64,000 nt of DNA, from contig JABIFP010000020.1 of assembly GCA_018650645.1 (NCBI GenBank), forward strand, positions 82,529-146,528, read 5' to 3'. The notes beneath the pieces are model-generated. The model was not told the origin of the DNA. It saw nothing but the letters and a program-made list of their open reading frames with translations, and did not search any database. This document shows, piece after piece, positions 14,538-57,499 of the stretch. Position numbers and translations under genes: made by a program. How positions within the stretch are numbered: the stretch's first letter is position 1; the number at the start of each line of letters is the position of its first letter. The stretch comes from Candidatus Magasanikiibacteriota bacterium. GTDB taxonomy: Bacteria > Patescibacteriota > Patescibacteriia > Magasanikbacterales > UBA922.

Positions 14538-15074
14538 TCAGCCCGTGAAGGTGACCAGCCGCGCCGCGATGTCGGCAAGCTCGAGGATCTCCACGGACAT
14601 GTCCGTCAGACTGCCCACCGGCACCAGGACCGCATCGTAGCCGATGATCCGGTTCTGGTCCTTCTGGAGCAAGTGCGAAAGCGCCCACACCTCACCGTCG
14701 ACGACGAAGTTTCCGCTCTCATCGACCGTGAACTCCTTCTTCTGGAAGACGATCCAGTGGGTCAGGCCCGCGCGGTGGACAACCTTGCCATCCTTCACGC
14801 AGATGAAGCCAGCGATCGCTTCCGCAGGCATGGCCGACTCACCTTGCCCGTTGTAGTACGTGACCCCTTCCGGGCACACCAGGCGAAGGGTCGGCTCGGC
14901 GTCGATGATGGGCGCGCCGTACGCGCCGTTCTTCAACTGGTAGAAGAGGTTCTGACCATCTTTCCCCGGGTTGAAGAAGTTGTAGCTGTCCGCCTCGTAG
15001 GTCATGGTGGTCTTGCTGTCCCCCACGACTGCGAACTCAAACACCCACTGACCACAGGTGATTTTCACCTTCAT
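14538..15074 (-). CDS. Compositionally foreign (high-G+C) hypothetical protein of 178 aa (MKVKITCGQWVFEF...); function unknown
   Basis: Strong G/C bias at third codon positions, unlike the neighbours. Consensus SD AAGGAG 6 nt before the ATG at 15074. Own terminator. The supplied 206-aa ORF extends upstream of the SD-supported start. Confidence 0.6.
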   Translation of the reverse strand: MKVKITCGQWVFEFAVVGDSKTTMTYEADSYNFFNPGKDGQNLFYQLKNGAYGAPIIDAEPTLRLVCPEGVTYYNGQGESAMPAEAIAGFICVKDGKVVHRAGLTHWIVFQKKEFTVDESGNFVVDGEVWALSHLLQKDQNRIIGYDAVLVPVGSLTDMSVEILELADIAARLVTFTG

Positions 15075-41869: not shown

Positions 41870-42295
41870 GTGAAACACGAACTCTTGAGGGATTCCATGC
41901 GAAATGTGCTATGGACGGCTCTCTTGATTGCCGTCTTTCGATTTGTGACGTATTCACAAGACCTACCTGAGGTACTGTTCTTTGCGGCTTCCTTTGTGGT
42001 CGTCATGCAGAGGATCCTCTATGAGGTGCAGCGCTCGGCAGAGTCGAAGAAGTATCAACGGTGGGCCATCATTGGTAGCTGGTATGTTCAAAACATCAGC
42101 GCCATGGCGGTGATCCTGGCGGCGATCGCCGGGCTCGGACACTGGGTGAACTTTGTGGACGGCCGATCGAACAGTGAACCCGACCCCGTGCCGCTCGCGC
42201 TGCTACTCCTGCTGTGCGTCGTCGGCCTGGCAGGCTTTCTGTCACTCGACCCAACCAACCCAACCAGCCACCTCGGTGGCAAGGAGGACAACTAG
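41870..42295 (+). CDS. Compositionally foreign (high-G+C) small 4-TM membrane protein; start is GTG 41870 or ATG 41897
   Basis: G+C-rich codons; four hydrophobic helices. GAGGGA precedes ATG 41897 by 4 nt. Own terminator directly after the stop. Confidence 0.5.
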   Translation: MKHELLRDSMRNVLWTALLIAVFRFVTYSQDLPEVLFFAASFVVVMQRILYEVQRSAESKKYQRWAIIGSWYVQNISAMAVILAAIAGLGHWVNFVDGRSNSEPDPVPLALLLLLCVVGLAGFLSLDPTNPTSHLGGKEDN

Positions 42296-47853: not shown

Positions 47854-48324
47854 TTATTCATCTAAATTTCTTTTTGAGTCTAATGTTGTGGTTTGATCCA
47901 AACTTGCCTTCACTCCTGACATATGCACACTTTTATTGTATTGCGTTTCTATCTGTTTCAAAAAGGCTGTTGCAAATGGCGGTAATCCCGCTTCTATTGC
48001 GAAGGCTGAATCAATAATTCTTTTTGCTGCAGTAAACAGCTCTGTATTTTCATGGGATATTTTCTCTTTCCCTGGTGTAAGAAATCGTTCTTGTTCAAAA
48101 AGCTTTGCAATTTCTGTTAACTGATTCTGCAATTTTGTTACAACATTTGCATTCATATCCTTGTTCTCTCTTTTCCAAACATTAAATGCATCCTCAACCA
48201 CAATTTTTATCCGTGCCACATCTTTGAATTGCAAAAGCTCTGCAGGCGAAATGTTCTCATCAGGTCTTTTAAATGTAAGTACATTTTCTGGTGTTGGTCT
48301 TTCCATACTAAAATAGTTTAGCAA
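47854..48324 (-). CDS. Hypothetical protein (156 aa)
   Basis: ORF with host composition, tightly packed between rseP and pheS. Confidence 0.4.
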   Translation of the reverse strand: MLNYFSMERPTPENVLTFKRPDENISPAELLQFKDVARIKIVVEDAFNVWKRENKDMNANVVTKLQNQLTEIAKLFEQERFLTPGKEKISHENTELFTAAKRIIDSAFAIEAGLPPFATAFLKQIETQYNKSVHMSGVKASLDQTTTLDSKRNLDE

Positions 48325-49477
48325 TATCTCTAAACGTCACTACAACAATGAGTATAAGCAGCAGCACAAATCCTACGGTATGCGCCTTTTGTTCATATTT
48401 CATTGGTACTTTTTTTCCGGTAATCCCTTCTATCCAGACAAATACTAATCGCCCACCGTCTAATGCTGGAATTGGTAAAATATTTAATGCCGCAAGACTT
48501 AATGAAATCATTGCTGTCACATTAATTAAGTATACTACGCCAAGTTTTACACTCTCTCCAATAATCGATGCGATGCCTACTGGGCCAGATACTTCAAATG
48601 CAGCACCCTGCCCAAGTATTAATCCTTTTACTAAAATGTATAACGATATAAAAATTGCTAATAGACTTGACCATGCTGCCTGCATACCTTTTACAAGGGC
48701 TAAGTACCATGGATATTTGAGCACAGCTCCGTCTGCAAGTGCAACACCAAGTTTATATCCTTTCCCCTCAGTAAGTACTTCCGGTACAACATCTACAGTT
48801 ACTTCTTCTCCGGAACGTTGCAACGTTACACTCACCATGTCGCCTTCACTTTTTTCTATCAGCGCTTGCGCATGTGAAGCATTAATAACATGTTGCCCAG
48901 ACACCGCAATAATAGAATCAGCACCCTTAATCCCTGCTTTTTCTGCTGGGGAATCCGTGAGTACCTGCTGCACCATTGTTACAGGAGGCGAAACGACCGT
49001 TGCATCTTCTGGAATACCATTTGTTACATCCGTAGGGAGCCCAACAGAAAATCCTATACCGAGCAATACTGCTGCAAGTACAAAGTTCATGGTTACTCCT
49101 GCTACAAGCACAATCGATTTTTTCCACGTACTTTTATGTCCAAAACTATCTTTTTGCGCAGCTTCTTCTCCGTTTTCTCCTTTAATTCTACAAAATCCAC
49201 CAAGCGGTAAAAGGTTCAAAGAGTAGAGTGTAGCTGGATATTCTTCTCCTGCTGCAGATACACCCGCTTCAATCGCATTTCGTTTTGCTTTTCTTGGAGA
49301 AACCCACACTAATTTTTTGGTAACAGGATCTTTATACACACCAATTGCAAGCGGTGGAAACCCGAGCGCAAACTCATGTACTTTCATTCCAGAGAGTCTG
49401 GCAGCTATAAAATGGCCAAACTCATGTACAAAAACAAGCAGGCCAAGGATGAGAATAAAGAGAAGTACAGTTGTCAT
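48308..49477 (-). CDS. rseP: RIP zinc metalloprotease RseP (site-2 protease, M50 with PDZ)
   Basis: HEFGHFIAARL HExxH in TM1, PDZ region, and the C-terminal LDGG motif (PALDGG). Confidence 0.85.
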   Translation of the reverse strand: MTTVLLFILILGLLVFVHEFGHFIAARLSGMKVHEFALGFPPLAIGVYKDPVTKKLVWVSPRKAKRNAIEAGVSAAGEEYPATLYSLNLLPLGGFCRIKGENGEEAAQKDSFGHKSTWKKSIVLVAGVTMNFVLAAVLLGIGFSVGLPTDVTNGIPEDATVVSPPVTMVQQVLTDSPAEKAGIKGADSIIAVSGQHVINASHAQALIEKSEGDMVSVTLQRSGEEVTVDVVPEVLTEGKGYKLGVALADGAVLKYPWYLALVKGMQAAWSSLLAIFISLYILVKGLILGQGAAFEVSGPVGIASIIGESVKLGVVYLINVTAMISLSLAALNILPIPALDGGRLVFVWIEGITGKKVPMKYEQKAHTVGFVLLLILIVVVTFRDIAKLF

Positions 49478-49516
49478 ATTTCTTGCAGTTTATGCGATCA
49501 TTGTGCCATAGAGAGC

Positions 49517-49546
49517 AAAAAAAAACAACCGCTATGCGGTGTTTTT
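49517..49546 (-). terminator. Bidirectional intrinsic terminator (A9, ACCGC-TAT-GCGGT, T5) ending the CheY-like module transcript
   Basis: Hairpin flanked by AAAAAAAAA and TTTTT; downstream (minus strand) of the G+C-rich module. Confidence 0.5.
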
Positions 49547-49562
49547 GAAGTGATTAAGTAGA

Positions 49563-49574
49563 ATCCCCCGACGG
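49563..49574. repeat. Left arm of a 12-bp perfect inverted repeat, ATCCCCCGACGG; its partner CCGTCGGGGGAT is at 50124..50135
   Basis: Exact reverse-complement 12-mers that bracket the G+C-rich CheY-like module. Confidence 0.6.
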
Positions 49575-49708
49575 ATTCCACCCGCAATGCACCTGGCAAC
49601 TACCTTGCCTTCACAAGCCCTAGGGTCTCCAGCCCCAAAGCTCAGCGCAGCAGCTGCTGTGTATCGTGTTGCTCGTGTTGTCGTTGTCGCCGAAGCGACG
49701 TCGTAGCG

Positions 49709-50086
49709 TTAGTTCGCCAGCCGAAGGCTAGCGATCCGCAGCATAGTACCAGCAGTCGTGTAGAGCTCCCCAAGGCGCAACTTCGAAAAGTCGACCCCAG
49801 GACGCATCGAACCACTCATAACGAGGACCGGAACAGACGAGAACCTCTCGGTAATAGCCTGTTTAAGCCAGAACCCGTTATGACGGTGCTGCATGTCGAC
49901 GTCCGTAATGACTAGATCGACACGCGTGGTCTCCATCAGCTCGAGAGCCTCTGGAGGGTTATTGGCGAAGACGATGTCAACGTCCATCACGTGCACCCTG
50001 GCCATGTAGCGCAACAAGTTGCGCCGGACCAAGATCTGGATGTTCGTTTCGTCGTCGACGACCAAAACAGTGGGCTTGTTACCCAT
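49709..50086 (-). CDS. Compositionally foreign (high-G+C) single-domain response regulator (CheY-like receiver, 125 aa)
   Basis: LVVDDE acidic pocket, the LVITDVDM phospho-acceptor Asp, and the VLVMSGS Thr/Ser position. SD AGGAG 5 nt before the ATG at 50086. The supplied ORF, extended to 50152, is not supported by the SD. Confidence 0.65.
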   Translation of the reverse strand: MGNKPTVLVVDDETNIQILVRRNLLRYMARVHVMDVDIVFANNPPEALELMETTRVDLVITDVDMQHRHNGFWLKQAITERFSSVPVLVMSGSMRPGVDFSKLRLGELYTTAGTMLRIASLRLAN

Positions 50087-50123
50087 GGTTGCTCCTCTCG
50101 TTGAGGTGCACCACGGGCTTTCA

Positions 50124-50135
50124 CCGTCGGGGGAT
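50124..50135. repeat. Right arm of the 12-bp inverted repeat, CCGTCGGGGGAT
   Basis: See 49563..49574. Confidence 0.6.
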
Positions 50136-50151
50136 AGCCCCAAGTAAACCA

Positions 50152-50415
50152 TTATTTTGACGTTTTGTCAATCCCTAAGCGCGTAATAAGTTGTTGTTTT
50201 TGTTCTTTTGAAAATTGTTTAATCTGCCACTCACGCTTAAGCGCCGCAGATCTATCCGTACATTTCTCACTATACACAAGTGTTATGGGGAGCCGCGCAC
50301 GCACATATTTGGCTCCTTTGCCTGATCTGTGCACCGCTAGCCGTGATTCTAGATCTTTTGCTATTCCTGTATATAAGCTACCGTCTGTGCATGACAAAAT
50401 ATAAACTGTGTACAT
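50152..50415 (-). CDS. GIY-YIG nuclease-family small protein (YhbQ/UPF0213-like)
   Basis: YTVYILSCTDGSLYTGIAKDLESRLAVH GIY-YIG motif; 87 aa; host-like composition. Confidence 0.75.
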   Translation of the reverse strand: MYTVYILSCTDGSLYTGIAKDLESRLAVHRSGKGAKYVRARLPITLVYSEKCTDRSAALKREWQIKQFSKEQKQQLITRLGIDKTSK

Positions 50416-50421
50416 ATTTGA

Positions 50422-50457
50422 TAAAAAAAATTGGCCGGCAGCTGGAGACTGACGGCC
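50422..50457 (-). terminator. Intrinsic terminator (GGCCG-16-nt loop-CGGCC followed by T9) ending the 50573..50995 module, 6 nt upstream of the GIY-YIG start codon
   Basis: Stem GGCCG/CGGCC followed by AATTTTTTTTT on the minus strand. Confidence 0.5.
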
Positions 50458-50572
50458 TAATTCGCTCCCGAAGGAGCATCTGGGTCTTTACGAGAGGAGC
50501 ACTCACGTTCTGACCACACTCTGACTATGCCCTATTTGCCCGGAGTTGTCAAGTGAATAACTCGATGCGCTC

Positions 50573-50995
50573 CTACTGGGAAAACCTGTTCGGCGGAGGC
50601 GCCTGGGGCCTTGCCTCTTGGAGCAGATGATCGCGGAGTGCGGTAGCGGCGGCTTGCGCAGCACCGTCGATGCTCGCGGCGTCGAGCGGCCCGAGAGCTT
50701 CGGCAGCATTCTGCGCTACAAATACGCGATACGCGCCAGTGAGCGCCTCGATCTGCTCGCCGTTGAGCGGGAACTGCGCAGCGTCAAGCTCAACCTCTCT
50801 GAGCGCTTGCGTATATATATATGTTAGGAAATCCCCAACATTCCCCTCCTGCGCTGACGCCAGCTTGATCTCAGCCGAAAAGGCCTTGACCAACTCACCC
50901 TCGCAAGTGAGAACACTCCCAATTCGTTCCTCGCTGCGCTCTTCTTCAATATTACGAGCGGCCCAGACTTCTGGTACCATGTTTTCCATACCCAT
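50573..50995 (-). CDS. Compositionally foreign (high-G+C) acidic hypothetical protein (140 aa, Ala/Glu-rich, Pro-rich C-terminus)
   Basis: G+C-rich codon usage. AGGGG SD 6 nt before the ATG. A structured ~120-nt 3'UTR with a GCTCC-UUCG-GGAGC hairpin. Confidence 0.55.
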   Translation of the reverse strand: MGMENMVPEVWAARNIEEERSEERIGSVLTCEGELVKAFSAEIKLASAQEGNVGDFLTYIYTQALREVELDAAQFPLNGEQIEALTGAYRVFVAQNAAEALGPLDAASIDGAAQAAATALRDHLLQEARPQAPPPNRFSQ

Positions 50996-51085
50996 CGATT
51001 TCCCCTTTACAAATTAGCGATTCCTGCCGTATACTACTCGCGTAGTTCACAGCTAGGTGGACGAAGACATTATAACATAGACTTT

Positions 51086-51649
51086 ATGAACCCACTATAT
51101 ATCATTTTAGCAGTTGTGGCGGTACTCCTCTTTTGGGTTATTGCCCTTTACAACGGCTTGGTAAAAATGAACAACCGAACAAAAGAAGCCTGGAGTGATA
51201 TTGACGTACAACTCAAACGTCGTCATGACCTTATCCCAAACCTTATTGCAAGTGTAAAGGGATACATGAAACACGAAAAAGAACTCCTTGAAAATATTAC
51301 AAAAGCACGTTCTCAGGCAATGAGTGCGCAAGAATCAGGAGATACAGCGGCACTTGCGTCAGCTGAAGGGATGCTTGGAGGAATGCTTGGAAAATTGCAA
51401 ATTGCAGTTGAAGCGTATCCTGACCTCAAGGCAAACCAAAACGTTGCGCAACTCATGGACGAACTTTCTGACACTGAAAATAAAATTCAGGCGTCAAGAA
51501 GATTCTACAACGGTATGGTTCGCGACTTCAACACAAAAATGGAATCATTCCCAAACAATGTATTTGCAGGAATGCTCAACTTCACAAAGTATGAATTCTT
51601 TGAAGTTGAAGATGCTGCTGAAAGAAAGAATGTAAAAGTAGAACTCTAA
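51086..51649 (+). CDS. lemA: LemA-family protein
   Basis: N-terminal TM plus NGLVKMNNRTKEAWSDIDVQLKRRHDLIPNL. Confidence 0.85.
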   Translation: MNPLYIILAVVAVLLFWVIALYNGLVKMNNRTKEAWSDIDVQLKRRHDLIPNLIASVKGYMKHEKELLENITKARSQAMSAQESGDTAALASAEGMLGGMLGKLQIAVEAYPDLKANQNVAQLMDELSDTENKIQASRRFYNGMVRDFNTKMESFPNNVFAGMLNFTKYEFFEVEDAAERKNVKVEL

Positions 51650-51673: not shown

Positions 51674-52225
51674 GTGCTGCTTTTGTATTTGTCGAATATA
51701 TATCTTTCCTCTATGGATATAACATTATTACAGCTAGACGCATTCCGAGCCAAAGGCATGCGTCCGCAAGCACTTTGCTGCATTGTAAAACATAAGCGAG
51801 TACTTTTTGTGTATGAAAGAGAATACGACCTGTGGCAGTTTCCACAAGGAGGTGTTGATAATGGTGAATCAGTGCAGCAAGCGGCAATGAGAGAAATGAA
51901 CGAAGAATTAGGTGAAGAATTTGCCGCGTCGCTTATCTATAAAGATATCATTGCAGAAAACACTATCAAATTTTTGAAAGAGAAGCATGGCGCCCGTCCA
52001 TTGCATACTGATGCAGGAAAGGCTATCATAATGAAAGGAAAGCATTACTTTTTTACCGTACTTGAAACAGATACTCGCGTTGCTGCAAGTGACACCCAAT
52101 TTGCAAAAGCCACCTGGCTCACGTATGAAGATGCAGTAAAACGAGCCACAACGCTGTATCAAAAAGGAAAAAAACGTGTCACGCTTGCAGCACTAGAAGC
52201 ACTTAAAGAACATAAGTACATCTAA
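51674..52225 (+). CDS. NUDIX hydrolase
   Basis: Nudix box QGGVDNGESVQQAAMREMNEELGEEF. The true start may be the internal ATG at codon 14 (MDITLLQ). Confidence 0.7.
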   Translation: MLLLYLSNIYLSSMDITLLQLDAFRAKGMRPQALCCIVKHKRVLFVYEREYDLWQFPQGGVDNGESVQQAAMREMNEELGEEFAASLIYKDIIAENTIKFLKEKHGARPLHTDAGKAIIMKGKHYFFTVLETDTRVAASDTQFAKATWLTYEDAVKRATTLYQKGKKRVTLAALEALKEHKYI

Positions 52226-53607: not shown

Positions 53608-53749
53608 ATGAATATTAATGATGCCTTCATTGATTACGACCCTATTATAACACCCACATTCTTCCCGTCAAAAAGGCTCCCAAAAACACCCCGTTTTTAA
53701 ACAAATCGGTTAATATGATATGATAGCGAAGCCTTGCGGAGGCAGAGAT

Positions 53750-56707
53750 ATGACAACAAGAACACCTGAAGAAATATTAGACCAACCCAAGGTCTCTTTA
53801 GTAGAGGTCTATTTGCAGTTGCAACAGCATTACGAAGGGGTGTTTGGTGAAAATGCTATCATTATTATGGAAGTTGGTTCATTTTACGAAGTGTATGGTG
53901 TGGATAATGCAGAGATGAAGATTGGGAAACCAAAAGAGATTGCAGAAGTACTTAACATTCAACTTACAAGACGAAATAAACGAGATCTGCAAAATAGTAT
54001 GAAGAATCCCCTCCTTGCGGGATTCCCTACTGCTACATTTGATAGATACATTGGCAGACTCACCGCAGAAAATCGCTATACCATTATTATTGTAAGGCAA
54101 AAAGGAGCACCACCAAATGTAGAGAGATATATTGACCGCGTGTTGTCTCCTGGGGTGAACTTTGATTACCGACCAGGCCACGATGAACAAACCATGGCGA
54201 GTGTGCTTGTTGAAATGTCTGGCAACATGTATAACGCGGCGTATTCAGCAATAGATGTTGCTACCGGCAAGTCCTACGTTTTTGAAGCGCACAGCACAGG
54301 GGAAGATCATACCGCTGCGCTTGATGCTATCTTTCATCTGCTCCAATCGCGTGGTACAGGAGAAGTGGTGCTCACGTGTAGCCCTGACATTGCCCCTTTT
54401 GTAACAGACTATTTGGAACTCCAAAATATTGGCAGCCTAACAACGCAAGAAAAACGACTTGATGTAGCGTTTCAAAATACGCTGCTCGGCTCAACATATA
54501 ATATTGAATCATACCTTTCTGCGGTTGAAACACTCGATTTAGAAAAGACACCACTTGCTTCTGAAGCGCTGGCGCTTGTCATCGATTGGATTATTCAGCA
54601 TGAACGGCCTTTGGCAGAACGACTGCATCGACCAATGCTTTTGCGCAATAATGCCTTTTTATATTTAGGAAACGATCCACTCCATCAGCTTGCAATGCTG
54701 TCTCATGATCCGCATGAGCAGACTATTCTCAAACTCATGAACCATACGCGCACCAGCATTGGTCGCAGGCTTTTGAAAGACCGACTCCTCCACCCTATTA
54801 CCAATCCAGAAGAAATGACGGCGCGATATGATTTAGCAGATGCCGTGGCGCCACTGATTACGGAAATTGAAATTCATTTGCGTGAAGTGTATGACATAGA
54901 ACGCCTTGCCCGCAGATTACGGCTTGGTCGGCTGCATCCGTTTGAAGTAAACTTTTTGTTCGACTCTCTTGAAGCAGCCATTAATATTATTACCACGCTT
55001 GAGTCTCAAGATCTTCCTGCAATAAAACAGCTGCAGGATCATAAAGAAACCATTCAAACCTGTATTAAAGAAGTGAAAGCACATTTTTCACTTTCAGAAA
55101 CTGGGCAAGTGACCAATCAAGCTATTTCAAGGTCTTTGTTTAAACAAGGATTTGATAAAGAACTCGATGCCATGCTTGCGCAAAAAGAAGCTGAAGAAGC
55201 AAAGCTTGAGCTGATTAAAGAAAAAATGGTTGAGCTGCTCCTTGATGCAACGGGAAAAGACGAGAGCAACTTTGTGGTAATAAAACAAATGGATAAAGAT
55301 GGTCACTACATTTCTTTGACCAAAAGCCGGTATGCACAAATTCAAGAAGCGCTTAGTGACACGTACGTGTCGATTGATGAAACCGTGTATGCATTTTCTG
55401 ATTTCAGATTTAAAGTGCAAGTTGGCAATGTAAAAATCACCGCAGGAATTATTGATGACGTCTCTGGTAGTATTGTTTCTTTACAAACAAAAATAATTGG
55501 TCGAGTACGTGAACTATTTGCACAAGAGCTTGTAAGTTTGGACACAACCTTTGGCGATACTATTCATATGGTAAGTGGATTACTTGCCGCGATTGATGTA
55601 GCTGTTTCTACCGCTAAGGCGGCACAAACGTTGCGGCTCGTAAGGCCAGAACTTACCGCATCAAAAAATCATGAAAACTATTTAGAGATTGCAGATTTAC
55701 GCCACCCTCTTGTAGAGGCGCGTGAGGAAAATGGAATTTATATAACAAATAATGTACTGCTCGGTTCTGCTGAGTATACTAATGACAATACACTACCAAT
55801 GCTGCCTGAAGCTGATGATGTGCGCGGCCTTTTGCTATACGGCATCAATGCAAGTGGAAAGTCGTCCTTTATGAAAGCTATAGGGATTGCTGTAATGCTT
55901 GCTCAAGCTGGGTTTTTTGTTCCAGCAACCAGGATGCGATTTAGTCCATTTGAAGAACTCTTTACGCGAATATTAGCAAAAGATAATGTAGAGCGCGGTC
56001 TTTCTTCCTTTGCAGTAGAAATGATGGAACTTAAAAATATTTTTACGCGCTGCTCCCCAAAAAGTTTGATTCTAGGCGATGAGATTTGCCGTGGAACAGA
56101 AACACTTTCTGCTATTGCTATTGTAAGCGCCGCAGTAAAGCGCCTCAGTGAAAAAGGAAGTCTCTTTTTGTTCACCACCCATCTGCATCAGCTAGCAAAC
56201 CTAGATGTGTTCTCTTCCCTACCGCATGTGGTCTGTGGCCACCTTGCCGTTCGGTATGATGAAGCGCAGGATTTGCTTATCTTTGACAGAACTCTGCAAC
56301 AAGGAAGTGGAAGTAGCATTTACGGACTCGAGTTTGCGCAGTCTCTTCACATGGATGAAACCTTCCTCAAAGATGCCATGAATATCCGGAAACATTTGGC
56401 CGATGATTTTGATGAACTGGAACTACTCACAAAAAAAGTAAAAAGTGCATATAATAAAGACCTGTTCTTATCTTCGTGCAGCTTGTGTCATAATAAAGCA
56501 GAAGAAACACATCATATTTCTCCGCAAGAGATTGCAGATAAGCACGGAAACATTGGTCACTTTCATAAAAATCATAAAGCCAACCTTATTACCCTTTGCG
56601 ATGATTGTCATGACAATATCCATCACGGGAAAATAAAAGTGAAAGGATATGTGATGACGAGTAAAGGGTTGCAGCTGGATGTTGAGGAGATGGAACAAGA
56701 ATCATAA
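53750..56707 (+). CDS. MutS-family protein with C-terminal HNH endonuclease domain (MutS-HNH fusion)
   Basis: MutS domain I (GSFYEVYGVDNAE), Walker A GINASGKSSFMKAIG, and a C-terminal HNH motif (C..CH...HHI.P...HGNIGHFH.NH..NLITLCDDCHDNIHHG). SD GGAGG precedes the ATG at 53750; the supplied ORF starts at 53720. Confidence 0.75.
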   Translation: MTTRTPEEILDQPKVSLVEVYLQLQQHYEGVFGENAIIIMEVGSFYEVYGVDNAEMKIGKPKEIAEVLNIQLTRRNKRDLQNSMKNPLLAGFPTATFDRYIGRLTAENRYTIIIVRQKGAPPNVERYIDRVLSPGVNFDYRPGHDEQTMASVLVEMSGNMYNAAYSAIDVATGKSYVFEAHSTGEDHTAALDAIFHLLQSRGTGEVVLTCSPDIAPFVTDYLELQNIGSLTTQEKRLDVAFQNTLLGSTYNIESYLSAVETLDLEKTPLASEALALVIDWIIQHERPLAERLHRPMLLRNNAFLYLGNDPLHQLAMLSHDPHEQTILKLMNHTRTSIGRRLLKDRLLHPITNPEEMTARYDLADAVAPLITEIEIHLREVYDIERLARRLRLGRLHPFEVNFLFDSLEAAINIITTLESQDLPAIKQLQDHKETIQTCIKEVKAHFSLSETGQVTNQAISRSLFKQGFDKELDAMLAQKEAEEAKLELIKEKMVELLLDATGKDESNFVVIKQMDKDGHYISLTKSRYAQIQEALSDTYVSIDETVYAFSDFRFKVQVGNVKITAGIIDDVSGSIVSLQTKIIGRVRELFAQELVSLDTTFGDTIHMVSGLLAAIDVAVSTAKAAQTLRLVRPELTASKNHENYLEIADLRHPLVEAREENGIYITNNVLLGSAEYTNDNTLPMLPEADDVRGLLLYGINASGKSSFMKAIGIAVMLAQAGFFVPATRMRFSPFEELFTRILAKDNVERGLSSFAVEMMELKNIFTRCSPKSLILGDEICRGTETLSAIAIVSAAVKRLSEKGSLFLFTTHLHQLANLDVFSSLPHVVCGHLAVRYDEAQDLLIFDRTLQQGSGSSIYGLEFAQSLHMDETFLKDAMNIRKHLADDFDELELLTKKVKSAYNKDLFLSSCSLCHNKAEETHHISPQEIADKHGNIGHFHKNHKANLITLCDDCHDNIHHGKIKVKGYVMTSKGLQLDVEEMEQES

Positions 56708-56818: not shown

Positions 56819-57499
56819 CTAGAGCCTGCAGCCGTTGCGAGCCACCGAGATAGCGTTCGCGAGCTTGCTTTCGACGGTCATCCTCGTCCTCTCCTCGAGG
56901 GGATAACCACCATAGTGAGCCACCTTCACGGGAGATTCATCGTGAAGGTCTACCACGATGGGAACATTCCGTGACTTGTCACCGGACGCGAGAGAAACCG
57001 CAATGATCTTTCCCTCACGGATCGTGATCTCCGGACGCTGCTGCCCCCCAGCCGAAGTCCTCAGAAGAGACATCACGTCCCGGAGAAGATCATCGCTGAT
57101 CACGATTTCCAGCTCACCGAAGGCTCCGCGGAGTTTCGCCATCACATCCAGATAGAACTCCGCTTCACGATGTAGCTGACGCAATTGCCTAAGCTCCACG
57201 TGCAGACCCGAGATGGCCTTGTGCATCGGGAGGGCATCCTCACCCCTCCGACAATGCAGCACCAGGATGCGTCCCGAGAAAGGCCCCGCGGCAATCACTT
57301 TCGGATCGCTCTGAGGGAGCATTTTCACACGCGCGCACCGCTTCCAGCTGAGAACCGTGGGTACTGGACCCACGCCAGGATACTGCACCCAGTGCTCCAC
57401 CAGCTCTTCCAGCTGATTCTCCGTGAGTTTGATCCGCTGATCCACTAGCACGTGCTGGATCGTCGCCTTCAGGGCCGCATAGAATGCCGCACTGATCAT
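56819..57499 (-). CDS. Compositionally foreign (high-G+C) hypothetical protein (226 aa); no recognisable domain
   Basis: Strong G/C bias at third positions in an AT-rich context; own terminator; AT-rich upstream region. Confidence 0.5.
   Translation of the reverse strand: MISAAFYAALKATIQHVLVDQRIKLTENQLEELVEHWVQYPGVGPVPTVLSWKRCARVKMLPQSDPKVIAAGPFSGRILVLHCRRGEDALPMHKAISGLHVELRQLRQLHREAEFYLDVMAKLRGAFGELEIVISDDLLRDVMSLLRTSAGGQQRPEITIREGKIIAVSLASGDKSRNVPIVVDLHDESPVKVAHYGGYPLEERTRMTVESKLANAISVARNGCRL

Follow-up and report, generated by a model that had tools for sequence, protein, structure and literature searches.

Inverted repeats around an orphan receiver gene of a Magasanikbacteria genome as probable mRNA-pairing elements

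The 64-kb window analysed here, a stretch of 64,000 nucleotides from a Candidatus Magasanikiibacteriota bacterium (contig JABIFP010000020.1), carries a gene for a CheY-like single-domain receiver that is flanked by inverted repeats. A first-pass annotation, made from the sequence, took these repeats either for the ends of a mobile unit with a cargo gene or for long-range pairing of the 5′ untranslated region (UTR) with its 3′ counterpart. Our results favour RNA. We put at about 70% the probability that the repeats are RNA elements, which join the 5′ and 3′ ends of the receiver mRNA and act alongside sequestration of its Shine-Dalgarno (SD) sequence, and are not DNA ends. The end-pairing helix, H1, is probably used to control translation or stability of the receiver message, as judged from the sequence. 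The second helix, H2, joins the receiver SD to a complementary anti-SD on the far side of the preceding gene. The receiver belongs to a three-gene module together with an open reading frame (ORF) named D and a GIY-YIG nuclease-domain gene. All coordinates are those of the window, and the module genes lie on its minus strand. The sister species used for comparison is represented by contig L100 (NCBI JBGCVJ010211432.1) and by L098, a near-identical strain of L100. The elements that form the two helices are as follows.

49709-50086, minus strand: CheY-like single-domain receiver gene, 125 aa (ATG 50086-50084, stop 49711-49709)
50104-50135, minus strand: H1 5′ arm, consisting of AUCCCCCGACGG (lower stem), UGAAA (internal loop) and GCCCGUGGUGCACCU (upper stem)
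49563-49594, minus strand: H1 3′ arm, consisting of AGGUGCAUUGCGGGU (upper stem), GGAAU (loop) and CCGUCGGGGGAU (lower stem)
50490-50501, minus strand: H2 5′ arm, the anti-SD UGCUCCUCUCGU, in the intergenic region between D and the GIY-YIG gene
50090-50101, minus strand: H2 3′ arm, ACGAGAGGAGCA, which contains the receiver SD

The perfect 12-bp repeats lie exactly where they had been annotated, with ATCCCCCGACGG at 49563-49574 on the plus strand and its reverse complement at 50124-50135, and these are the only two copies in the window even when one mismatch is tolerated. Taken alone, such a repeat is modestly unlikely, about 1 in 100 for the region: when the 721-nt region was dinucleotide-shuffled 1000 times, nine of the shuffles contained a perfect inverted repeat of at least 12 nt with arms more than 100 nt apart. 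The repeat lengthens to 32-nt arms, 509 nt apart, whose complementarity as DNA is 72%. In the sense RNA of the window, H1 consists of 12 bp between AUCCCCCGACGG and CCGUCGGGGGAU, a 5×5 internal loop (UGAAA/GGAAU) and 15 bp between GCCCGUGGUGCACCU and AGGUGCAUUGCGGGU, the latter comprising 11 Watson-Crick and four G·U pairs. The L100 counterpart has 10+2 bp with one U·U, the identical 5×5 loop and 14 bp (10 Watson-Crick and four G·U). All non-Watson-Crick positions of the upper stem, four in each species, are G·U and are so on the sense strand only, which makes the sense duplex 9-12 kcal/mol more stable than the antisense one.

The duplex between leader and 3′ end has a free energy of -60.9 kcal/mol, 5.6 standard deviations below shuffled sequences, and none of 1000 shuffles reached it. 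The z-scores of the leader/tail duplex were -5.6 and -5.9, and those of the whole transcripts were -7.2 for the window and -10.2 for L100. For the transcripts of the window and of L100 alike, the minimum free energy (MFE) and centroid structures contain H1, as does the RNAalifold consensus; folding of full-length transcripts predicts a pair probability of 0.82-0.98 for it. The SD, the coding sequence and the hairpins of the 3′ UTR all lie inside H1. The annotated alternative of long-range 5′/3′ UTR pairing is supported by these structures and by the conservation of H1 in the sister-species orthologue.

Between the window species and its sister, synonymous sites are saturated, and nucleotide similarity is seen in the leader (50173-50049) and then again from exactly position 49594 onwards, taking in the H1 3′ arm and the terminator; the interior between the leader and 49594 gave no alignable nucleotide similarity between the two. 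Because MAFFT-based pair counting misaligns the variable upper stem of H1, the helices were compared species by species. The H1 5′ arm has a 3-nt indel (GUG), and the 3′ arm carries a matching one, also of 3 nt (UGC), at the position that pairs with it. One-sided substitutions (two C>U opposite G and one G>A opposite U) retain pairing, and the L100 stem is longer by two new pairs. In the window and in L100 alike, H1 and H2 are the top two long-range inverted repeats, and they occupy homologous positions.

By sequence comparison, H2 provides the stronger apparent covariation signal of the two. In the window, ACGAGAGGAGCA (50101-50090) is a perfect 12-nt complement of UGCUCCUCUCGU (50501-50490), about 390 nt away; in L100, UCCGAGGAGAACU and AGUUCUCCUCGGA form 13 nt of perfect complementarity at the homologous position. 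The arms differ between the species at most positions outside GAGGAG/CUCCUC. Cognate duplexes reach -23.6 and -25.6 kcal/mol, and cross-species pairs only about -13, a loss of about 10 kcal/mol. The longest complementarity in 5000 shuffles per species was 11 nt; 12 was never reached. As H2 involves the ribosome-binding site, it points to control at the RNA level. In nascent transcripts of the window that had initiated upstream, H2 had a predicted probability of 0.90-0.97 and the SD was at most 1% unpaired before the H1 3′ arm was made. In the full-length window RNA, H1 was favoured and the SD was 40-48% unpaired.

Further signals around the receiver and in the D/GIY-YIG intergenic region bear on which transcripts could carry these helices.

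50143-50171, minus strand: putative promoter TTGACA-N17(TGg)-TTTACT, overlapping the GIY-YIG stop
50087-50152, minus strand: leader, open and in frame with the receiver ORF, which it would extend by 22 codons; its ATG overlaps the GIY-YIG stop (TAATG)
49595-49708, minus strand: structured interior of the 3′ UTR, three hairpins, within H1
49517-49540, minus strand: intrinsic terminator ACCGC-AUA-GCGGU (stem 49540-49528) with U-run; the same terminator is present in L100
50524-50552, minus strand: promoter-like TTGACA-17-CATAGT, a consensus match, directly past the stop of D
50477-50464, minus strand: GCUCC-UUCG-GGAGC hairpin (sequence and fold)
50457-50423, minus strand: terminator-like GGCCG...CGGCC hairpin with U8, just before the GIY-YIG start (sequence and fold)

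The receiver SD, GAGAGGAG, lies five nucleotides before the ATG; it and the terminator are the receiver's own, as had been annotated. A start about 7 nt past the candidate promoter at the GIY-YIG stop would place the H1 5′ arm at the extreme 5′ end of a monocistronic receiver mRNA. The hexamers and the extended -10 TG of this candidate are identical in L100, where the TTGACA lies in another frame and its TGA serves as the stop codon. The promoter scanner missed it because its -10 lacks an A at position 2. The best sigma-70-like match on the sense strand (10/12) is TTGACA-17-CATAGT, with an L100 counterpart, TTGACA-17-CATACT, at 1067-1095; a transcript from it would include the anti-SD arm. L100 also has equivalents of the two intergenic hairpins, a GCUC-UUCG-GAGC hairpin followed by a stem and U-run. 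The D/GIY-YIG intergenic regions of the window (50416-50572, minus strand) and of L100 (1064-1216) share one layout: TTGACA-17-CATAsT, the CUCCUC hairpin, the UUCG hairpin and the terminator-like stem with its U-run, which ends 7-15 nt ahead of the GIY-YIG start. From its sequence, this region looks like an attenuator-type leader.

The 145-nt receiver 3′ UTR is rich in hairpins, and all three structures annotated in it were located: the tetraloop hairpin GUCGC-UUCG-GCGAC (49699-49686), the palindrome CAGCAGCUGCUG (49659-49648) and GGCAA-GGUAG-UUGCC (49609-49595). The L100 3′ UTR is not alignable with it; at its start there is again a GC hairpin (CGCGAC-AA-GUCGCG), and it likewise folds into hairpins. 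The rseP promoter region adjoins the receiver terminator. Rfam gave no match at gathering score in the window, and none at E ≤ 1 in 49300-51200 or in the L100/L098 module; weak sub-threshold matches to SNORD50 and sroH fell at L100 1-417, outside the module. A small antisense ORF (49587-49706, 39 aa) had no counterpart in L100.

In L100, the leader extension is 21 codons long (1487-1549), and the peptide block LSPDGESP(W)CTS is conserved. Five substitutions, each of them synonymous, and one whole-codon indel separate the two species within codons 6-17. The gene is annotated with 147 aa by JGI and with 125 aa by NCBI. The leader may be translated on some transcripts, possibly coupled to the GIY-YIG gene. 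Against a coding leader, the strong conserved SD and H2 are both centred on the internal ATG.

These elements suggest how the two helices could act. The receiver leader would pair with the last part of the 3′ UTR, just ahead of the terminator, to form H1. Transcripts started upstream would bear the anti-SD, and on these H2 would hold the receiver ribosome-binding site closed. A transcript from the candidate promoter overlapping the GIY-YIG stop would lack the anti-SD, and H1 would lock its extreme 5′ end to its 3′ end; this locking could shield the message from end-dependent RNases or could make a double-stranded site for RNase III. In an alternative or additional step, formation of H1 after synthesis of the 3′ end would displace H2 and so open the SD. 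As H1 and H2 cross in topology, they would be either alternatives or parts of a long-loop pseudoknot. In a more ambitious version, the two helices would act together as an RNA switch, or a long-loop pseudoknot, on the scale of the operon and spanning two cistrons. The anti-SD ahead of the GIY-YIG gene would keep the receiver ribosome-binding site closed, the SD would be freed only once the finished 3′ end pairs with the leader, or only on the promoter-proximal isoform, and the GC-richness would be kept by selection for this architecture rather than be left over from transfer. We regard this version as possible but doubtful; if true, it would place a transcript-completion or isoform checkpoint on translation of an orphan signalling protein.

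Several observations weigh against the RNA-pairing reading. The equilibrium probability of H2 is low (0-0.15) in full-length transcripts, and the predictions of H2 in nascent L100 transcripts are erratic. H1 and H2 cross, so nested folding is blind to their coexistence. H1 leaves the SD uncovered, which would make any effect on translation indirect. One lower-stem pair of H1 is altered on both sides and becomes a U·U mismatch in L100. Most changes in the H1 5′ arm fall at third codon positions, and coding constraint may therefore explain part of the conservation of that arm. The candidate promoter beside H1 has a poor -10 (TTTACT). Finally, the conservation of pairing is judged from two distinct species.

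A sub-variant of the RNA reading, which we consider unlikely, sees H1 mainly as a stalk for RNase III processing, by which the receiver cistron would be cut out of a longer D-GIY-YIG-receiver precursor. H1 would suit this role, as a helix of 27 bp whose symmetric internal loop is conserved and which surrounds the whole cistron, and end pairing in icaR creates an RNase III substrate (PMC3868564). There is also a terminator-like hairpin before the GIY-YIG gene and none between it and the receiver. Processing would, however, leave H2 unexplained, and the candidate promoter sits right at the H1 5′ arm.

The remaining explanations place the repeats in the DNA or deny them a function, and they depend on the history of the locus. 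Proteins identical to those of the window are annotated as Candidatus Magasanikbacteria (MBT4153589.1 and neighbours), and the nearest rseP homologues among GTDB species genomes are in Patescibacteria metagenome-assembled genomes, at 51-58% identity. The 1.7 kb around the receiver are 100% identical in 12 contigs over their full length and in three more over the part covered. The population is essentially clonal at the receiver locus, and since the identical contigs were obtained from different samples with different assemblers, an assembly artefact can be dismissed as the source of the island. In the window, lemA and rseP are 1.6 kb apart (49478-51085), and the interval holds ORF D, the GIY-YIG gene and the receiver. 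The two upstream genes are as follows.

50995-50573, minus strand: ORF D, 140 aa, GC-rich
50152-50415, minus strand: GIY-YIG nuclease-domain gene, 87 aa (Pfam PF01541, E = 1.6e-18)

The AlphaFold model of D is all-helical and of low confidence (pLDDT 58). The GIY-YIG gene is host-like in its third-codon-position GC content (GC3 0.35) and is placed between the two GC-rich genes, inside the H2 loop. L100 and L098 have the gene order of the window (lemA, D-like, GIY-YIG, receiver, rseP), with protein identities of 95% for LemA, 74% for RseP, 58% for GIY-YIG, 48% for the receiver and 34% for D. Seven relatives more distant than the sister have lemA and rseP as divergent neighbours, with only 80-227 bp between the two genes in six cases. 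Because the three-gene module is missing from these outgroups, the locus is an insertion relative to them, and the module was inserted before the window species and its sister species split. The seventh relative (L018, 2701-3567) has, between lemA and rseP, an unrelated gene of 271 aa that is host-like in composition, and the divergent spacer seems to be an insertion hotspot.

The receiver had been described as foreign in composition. The GC excess is real: the receiver region has 55-57% GC against 42% in the window, and GC3 is 0.71 against 0.25-0.40 in neighbouring genes. Recent arrival did not hold up, as the module is common to a species with saturated synonymous sites and the receiver is therefore not a recent acquisition. 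In the sister species, GC3 remains 0.50 for D and 0.67 for the receiver despite saturated synonymous divergence (dS). Such persistence could mean that genes acquired long ago from a very GC-rich donor are ameliorating slowly, or that their composition is actively maintained; horizontal gene transfer into Patescibacteria is generally common (PMC12455944). Five single-gene GC-rich islands, the receiver and D among them, occur in the window.

14538-15074, minus strand: GC-rich island
41897-42295, plus strand: GC-rich island
49709-50086, minus strand: GC-rich island, the receiver
50573-50995, minus strand: GC-rich island, D
56819-57499, minus strand: GC-rich island

Their GC3 is 0.62-0.86, against 0.25-0.40 in about 65 other genes of the window. 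The four islands other than the receiver are ORFans with no Pfam, NCBIfam or PADLOC match, and word-based searches with the receiver, D and island A matched only these sequences themselves. We considered whether the five share end motifs, as a family of cassettes or miniature inverted-repeat transposable elements (MITEs) would, and found just chance matches of 10-16 nt; end pairing in the remaining islands gave nothing like H1. Selection on mRNA structure was likewise rejected as a general cause of the islands, as coding-sequence z-scores near 0 for D and B contrast with -4.9 for the receiver, and those of host genes run from +1.4 to -3.8. The persistence of GC-rich ORFan genes in this genome is a question separate from the RNA pairing.

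Two short metagenome contigs, L001 (1-198) and L099 (1-1584 and 3236-3267), join foreign sequence of 63-68% GC to the islands. Their island portions are 99.7-100% identical to the window, and the foreign parts are the end of an ORF, a PlsC-like gene and a PAS-domain gene. The break points correspond to window position 50069, within the receiver coding sequence (VLVVDDE), and 50762, within ORF D (GEQIEAL). L001 has a coverage of 1.1×, and L099 has a second junk junction and two non-synonymous changes in its receiver, P44T and E46Q. We rejected these contigs as foreign-mosaic donor contexts: the joins interrupt coding sequences that are continuous, with conserved N-termini, in the sister species. 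Joins inside conserved coding sequences make the contigs most likely assembly chimeras formed at GC-rich k-mers; real recombinants are less likely.

That the receiver is a recently transferred foreign gene, and the repeat a chance or relic inverted duplication without function, is improbable. It would account for a GC3 of 0.71 in a genome at 0.25-0.40 and for a perfect 12-mer repeat of a kind found in about 1% of shuffles, and L001 and L099 would link GC-rich foreign sequence to the islands. These two contigs look like chimeras, however, and the module is older than the split from a species with saturated dS. Exhaustive HMMER searches found no GC-rich donor of the receiver and no homologue past generic receivers of at most 36% identity, and searches of phage and viral contigs were empty. 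The arms, moreover, changed in both species and yet stayed complementary.

An invertible DNA segment, in which a recombinase flips 510 bp and separates the gene from a promoter outside the left arm, is highly improbable. Its appeal lies in a promoter-like site outside the arm, with the SD, coding sequence and UTR inside, and in the conservation of the inverted repeats in two species. Yet 15 of 15 whole-locus contigs are collinear and 100% identical, two more are truncated, and the opposite orientation was not seen; no recombinase is among the genes annotated within ±10 kb on those contigs. The arms are only 72% identical as DNA, with G·U on one strand, whereas inversion with gene conversion would homogenise them. 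H2 behaves alike around the ribosome-binding site, which again points to RNA.

The mobile unit proposed in the first-pass annotation, a MITE or mini-insertion sequence (mini-IS) whose 12-bp terminal inverted repeats (TIRs) are recognised by a transposase and whose cargo is the receiver, is scarcely credible. Like such elements, the locus has short, perfect 12-bp inverted repeats bounding a compact, compositionally distinct segment, and the module is missing from the seven more distant relatives, six of which have lemA and rseP adjacent. Unlike them, it is single-copy. The window and each fetched locus yielded a single repeat pair, always at the same locus, on conspecific or sister contigs. Viral contigs gave no matches to the repeat, and the search for further copies and empty sites returned neither a copy elsewhere nor, in the relatives compared, an empty site exact to the unit: the outgroups lack the entire 1.5-kb module, and no genome compared lacks just 49563-50135. 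There is no target-site duplication, as the flanks (...GGGGCU before one arm and UCUACU... after the other) contain no abutting direct repeat, and no transposase was found within 10 kb. The sister species retains the arms although the cargo has diverged to 48%. A protein-recognised TIR would not explain arm mismatches that are G·U on the sense strand; the arms co-vary, so that pairing rather than sequence is preserved. The 12-mer is part of an RNA structure conserved in the sister orthologue, which in itself argues against a mobile element.

A leader-motif scan of JGI metagenomes (241 million records) returned 14 unrelated, GC-rich chance matches and no new homologues; it also missed the organism's own contigs and is therefore uninformative on further copies in the lineage. 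Among the unrelated JGI contigs, L105 (65-83), L106, L111 and L112 all GC-rich, share a conserved context around the chance motif TCCCCCGACGGTGAAAGCC (…GGCTCTCCCCCGACGGTGAAAGCCGTTTGAAAGTCGCTTGTCGTCGGGCTGAAGG…); by its look, it belongs to another organism and is a structured element that does not code for protein. An integron cassette is not indicated, as the arms, 509 nt apart, lie on either side of the gene and do not make up a 60-140-nt attC, the islands share no sequence, and no integrase was found in the neighbourhood.

The protein itself is predicted from its sequence to be an ordinary-looking phosphorylatable receiver. It matches Pfam Response_reg (PF00072) over residues 7-93 with E = 3e-11 and 43.9 bits (cut-off 30.2). 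Alignment to solved receivers (6swl and 1mvo) places D11/D12, the phospho-acceptor D62 (ITDVDM) and S91 (VMSGS) at equivalent residues, so that the annotated complete receiver with its DD pocket, phospho-acceptor Asp and Ser is confirmed; the conserved Lys, K102, was assigned by eye. The key residues are all retained in the sister orthologue P0162, and in P0003 a His replaces the Asp two residues past the acceptor. The orthologue in L100 and L098 is 48% identical, with a ratio of non-synonymous to synonymous divergence (dN/dS) of about 0.2. In an exhaustive HMMER search of 1.84 billion representatives, the family comprised two clusters only, this one and one sister cluster, and the remaining matches were generic receivers of at most 36% identity. 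A tblastn search with one hybrid-kinase query, a limited test, found no histidine-kinase homologue in the 64-kb window. Defence-system and NCBIfam profiles gave nothing except generic receiver matches below cut-off. The gene had also been called unusual in itself as an orphan CheY; we do not consider a single-domain orphan receiver remarkable.

In the RNase III stalks of rRNA precursors and phage T7 and in the long-distance MS2 coat/replicase interaction, segments hundreds of nucleotides apart pair and either enclose a functional unit or close a downstream ribosome-binding site, and in these systems cleavage or coupling has been demonstrated. In MS2, the upstream gene that is translated contains the partner; the anti-SD described here, by contrast, lies outside the GIY-YIG coding sequence.

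Three bacterial mRNAs serve as precedents, and the receiver locus has no sequence in common with any of them. In the icaR mRNA of Staphylococcus aureus, a segment of the long 3′ UTR pairs with the mRNA's own 5′ leader (PMC3868564). Common to both cases are a double-stranded RNA able to affect translation and RNase III access, and an anti-SD motif (of the UCCCC type in icaR, CUCCUC here). The icaR 3′ UTR, however, carries the anti-SD itself and pairs with the SD; at the receiver locus, H1 joins the 3′ UTR to a segment upstream of the SD, and the anti-SD is about 390 nt upstream, across another gene. The two share no sequence homology, the phylum here is Patescibacteria, and the pairing described here is known from sequence alone. 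The hok mRNA of the hok/Sok system of plasmid R1 combines tac/fbi end pairing with sequestration of the SD by ucb, and shows covariation among homologues (PMC9841398). It resembles the present case in having a 5′/3′ closing stem and an upstream complementary box that hides the SD, the two interactions being linked by refolding. It differs in that hok is a type I toxin mRNA of about 400 nt, whose product is a small hydrophobic toxin and whose antisense RNA is Sok; here the product is a 125-aa receiver and the upstream box sits in the leader of a different cistron. Neither a conserved antisense RNA nor a small-peptide ORF of the hok/Sok type was seen at the receiver locus. In the hbs mRNA of Bacillus subtilis, a 14-bp interaction of the 5′ UTR with the 3′ UTR modulates endonuclease access and thus stability (PMC5737220). 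As in the present case, the mRNA is small and highly structured, its SD is strong and the helix is a long-range one between UTRs; the helix at the receiver locus has about double the length and falls into two parts around a conserved internal loop.

End pairing of bacterial mRNAs has been documented in a handful of cases (icaR, hbs and hok), all found experimentally in cultured Firmicutes or Proteobacteria. The present case is a candidate from comparative genomics in an uncultured Patescibacterium with a reduced genome. It combines a 27-bp end-pairing helix with a second helix that would sequester the SD from across a neighbouring gene. If true, it would suggest elaborate post-transcriptional control in bacteria of the candidate phyla radiation (CPR), which have few classical regulators, and would provide a compact, testable model. 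It also shows that, where short inverted repeats bracket a gene of odd composition, the orthologues should be checked before the repeats are taken for transposon ends.

Three further genes near the locus deserve mention. A NUDIX gene lies between lemA and htpX in the window (51674-52225, plus strand); tblastn did not detect it at this place in the relatives, where lemA and htpX are 14-111 nt apart, the short sister contig not being included in this comparison. A small gene in the interval between rseP and pheS (47854-48306, minus strand) went undetected in relatives more distant than the sister species, whose copy is only 31% identical. Finally, a MutS-like protein of 995 aa (53720-56707, plus strand) ends in a Cys/His-rich, HNH-like motif (…CHNKAEETHH…HFHKNHKANLITLCDDCHDNIHHGKI), a sequence feature that suggests a MutS-HNH fusion rather than a canonical MutS.

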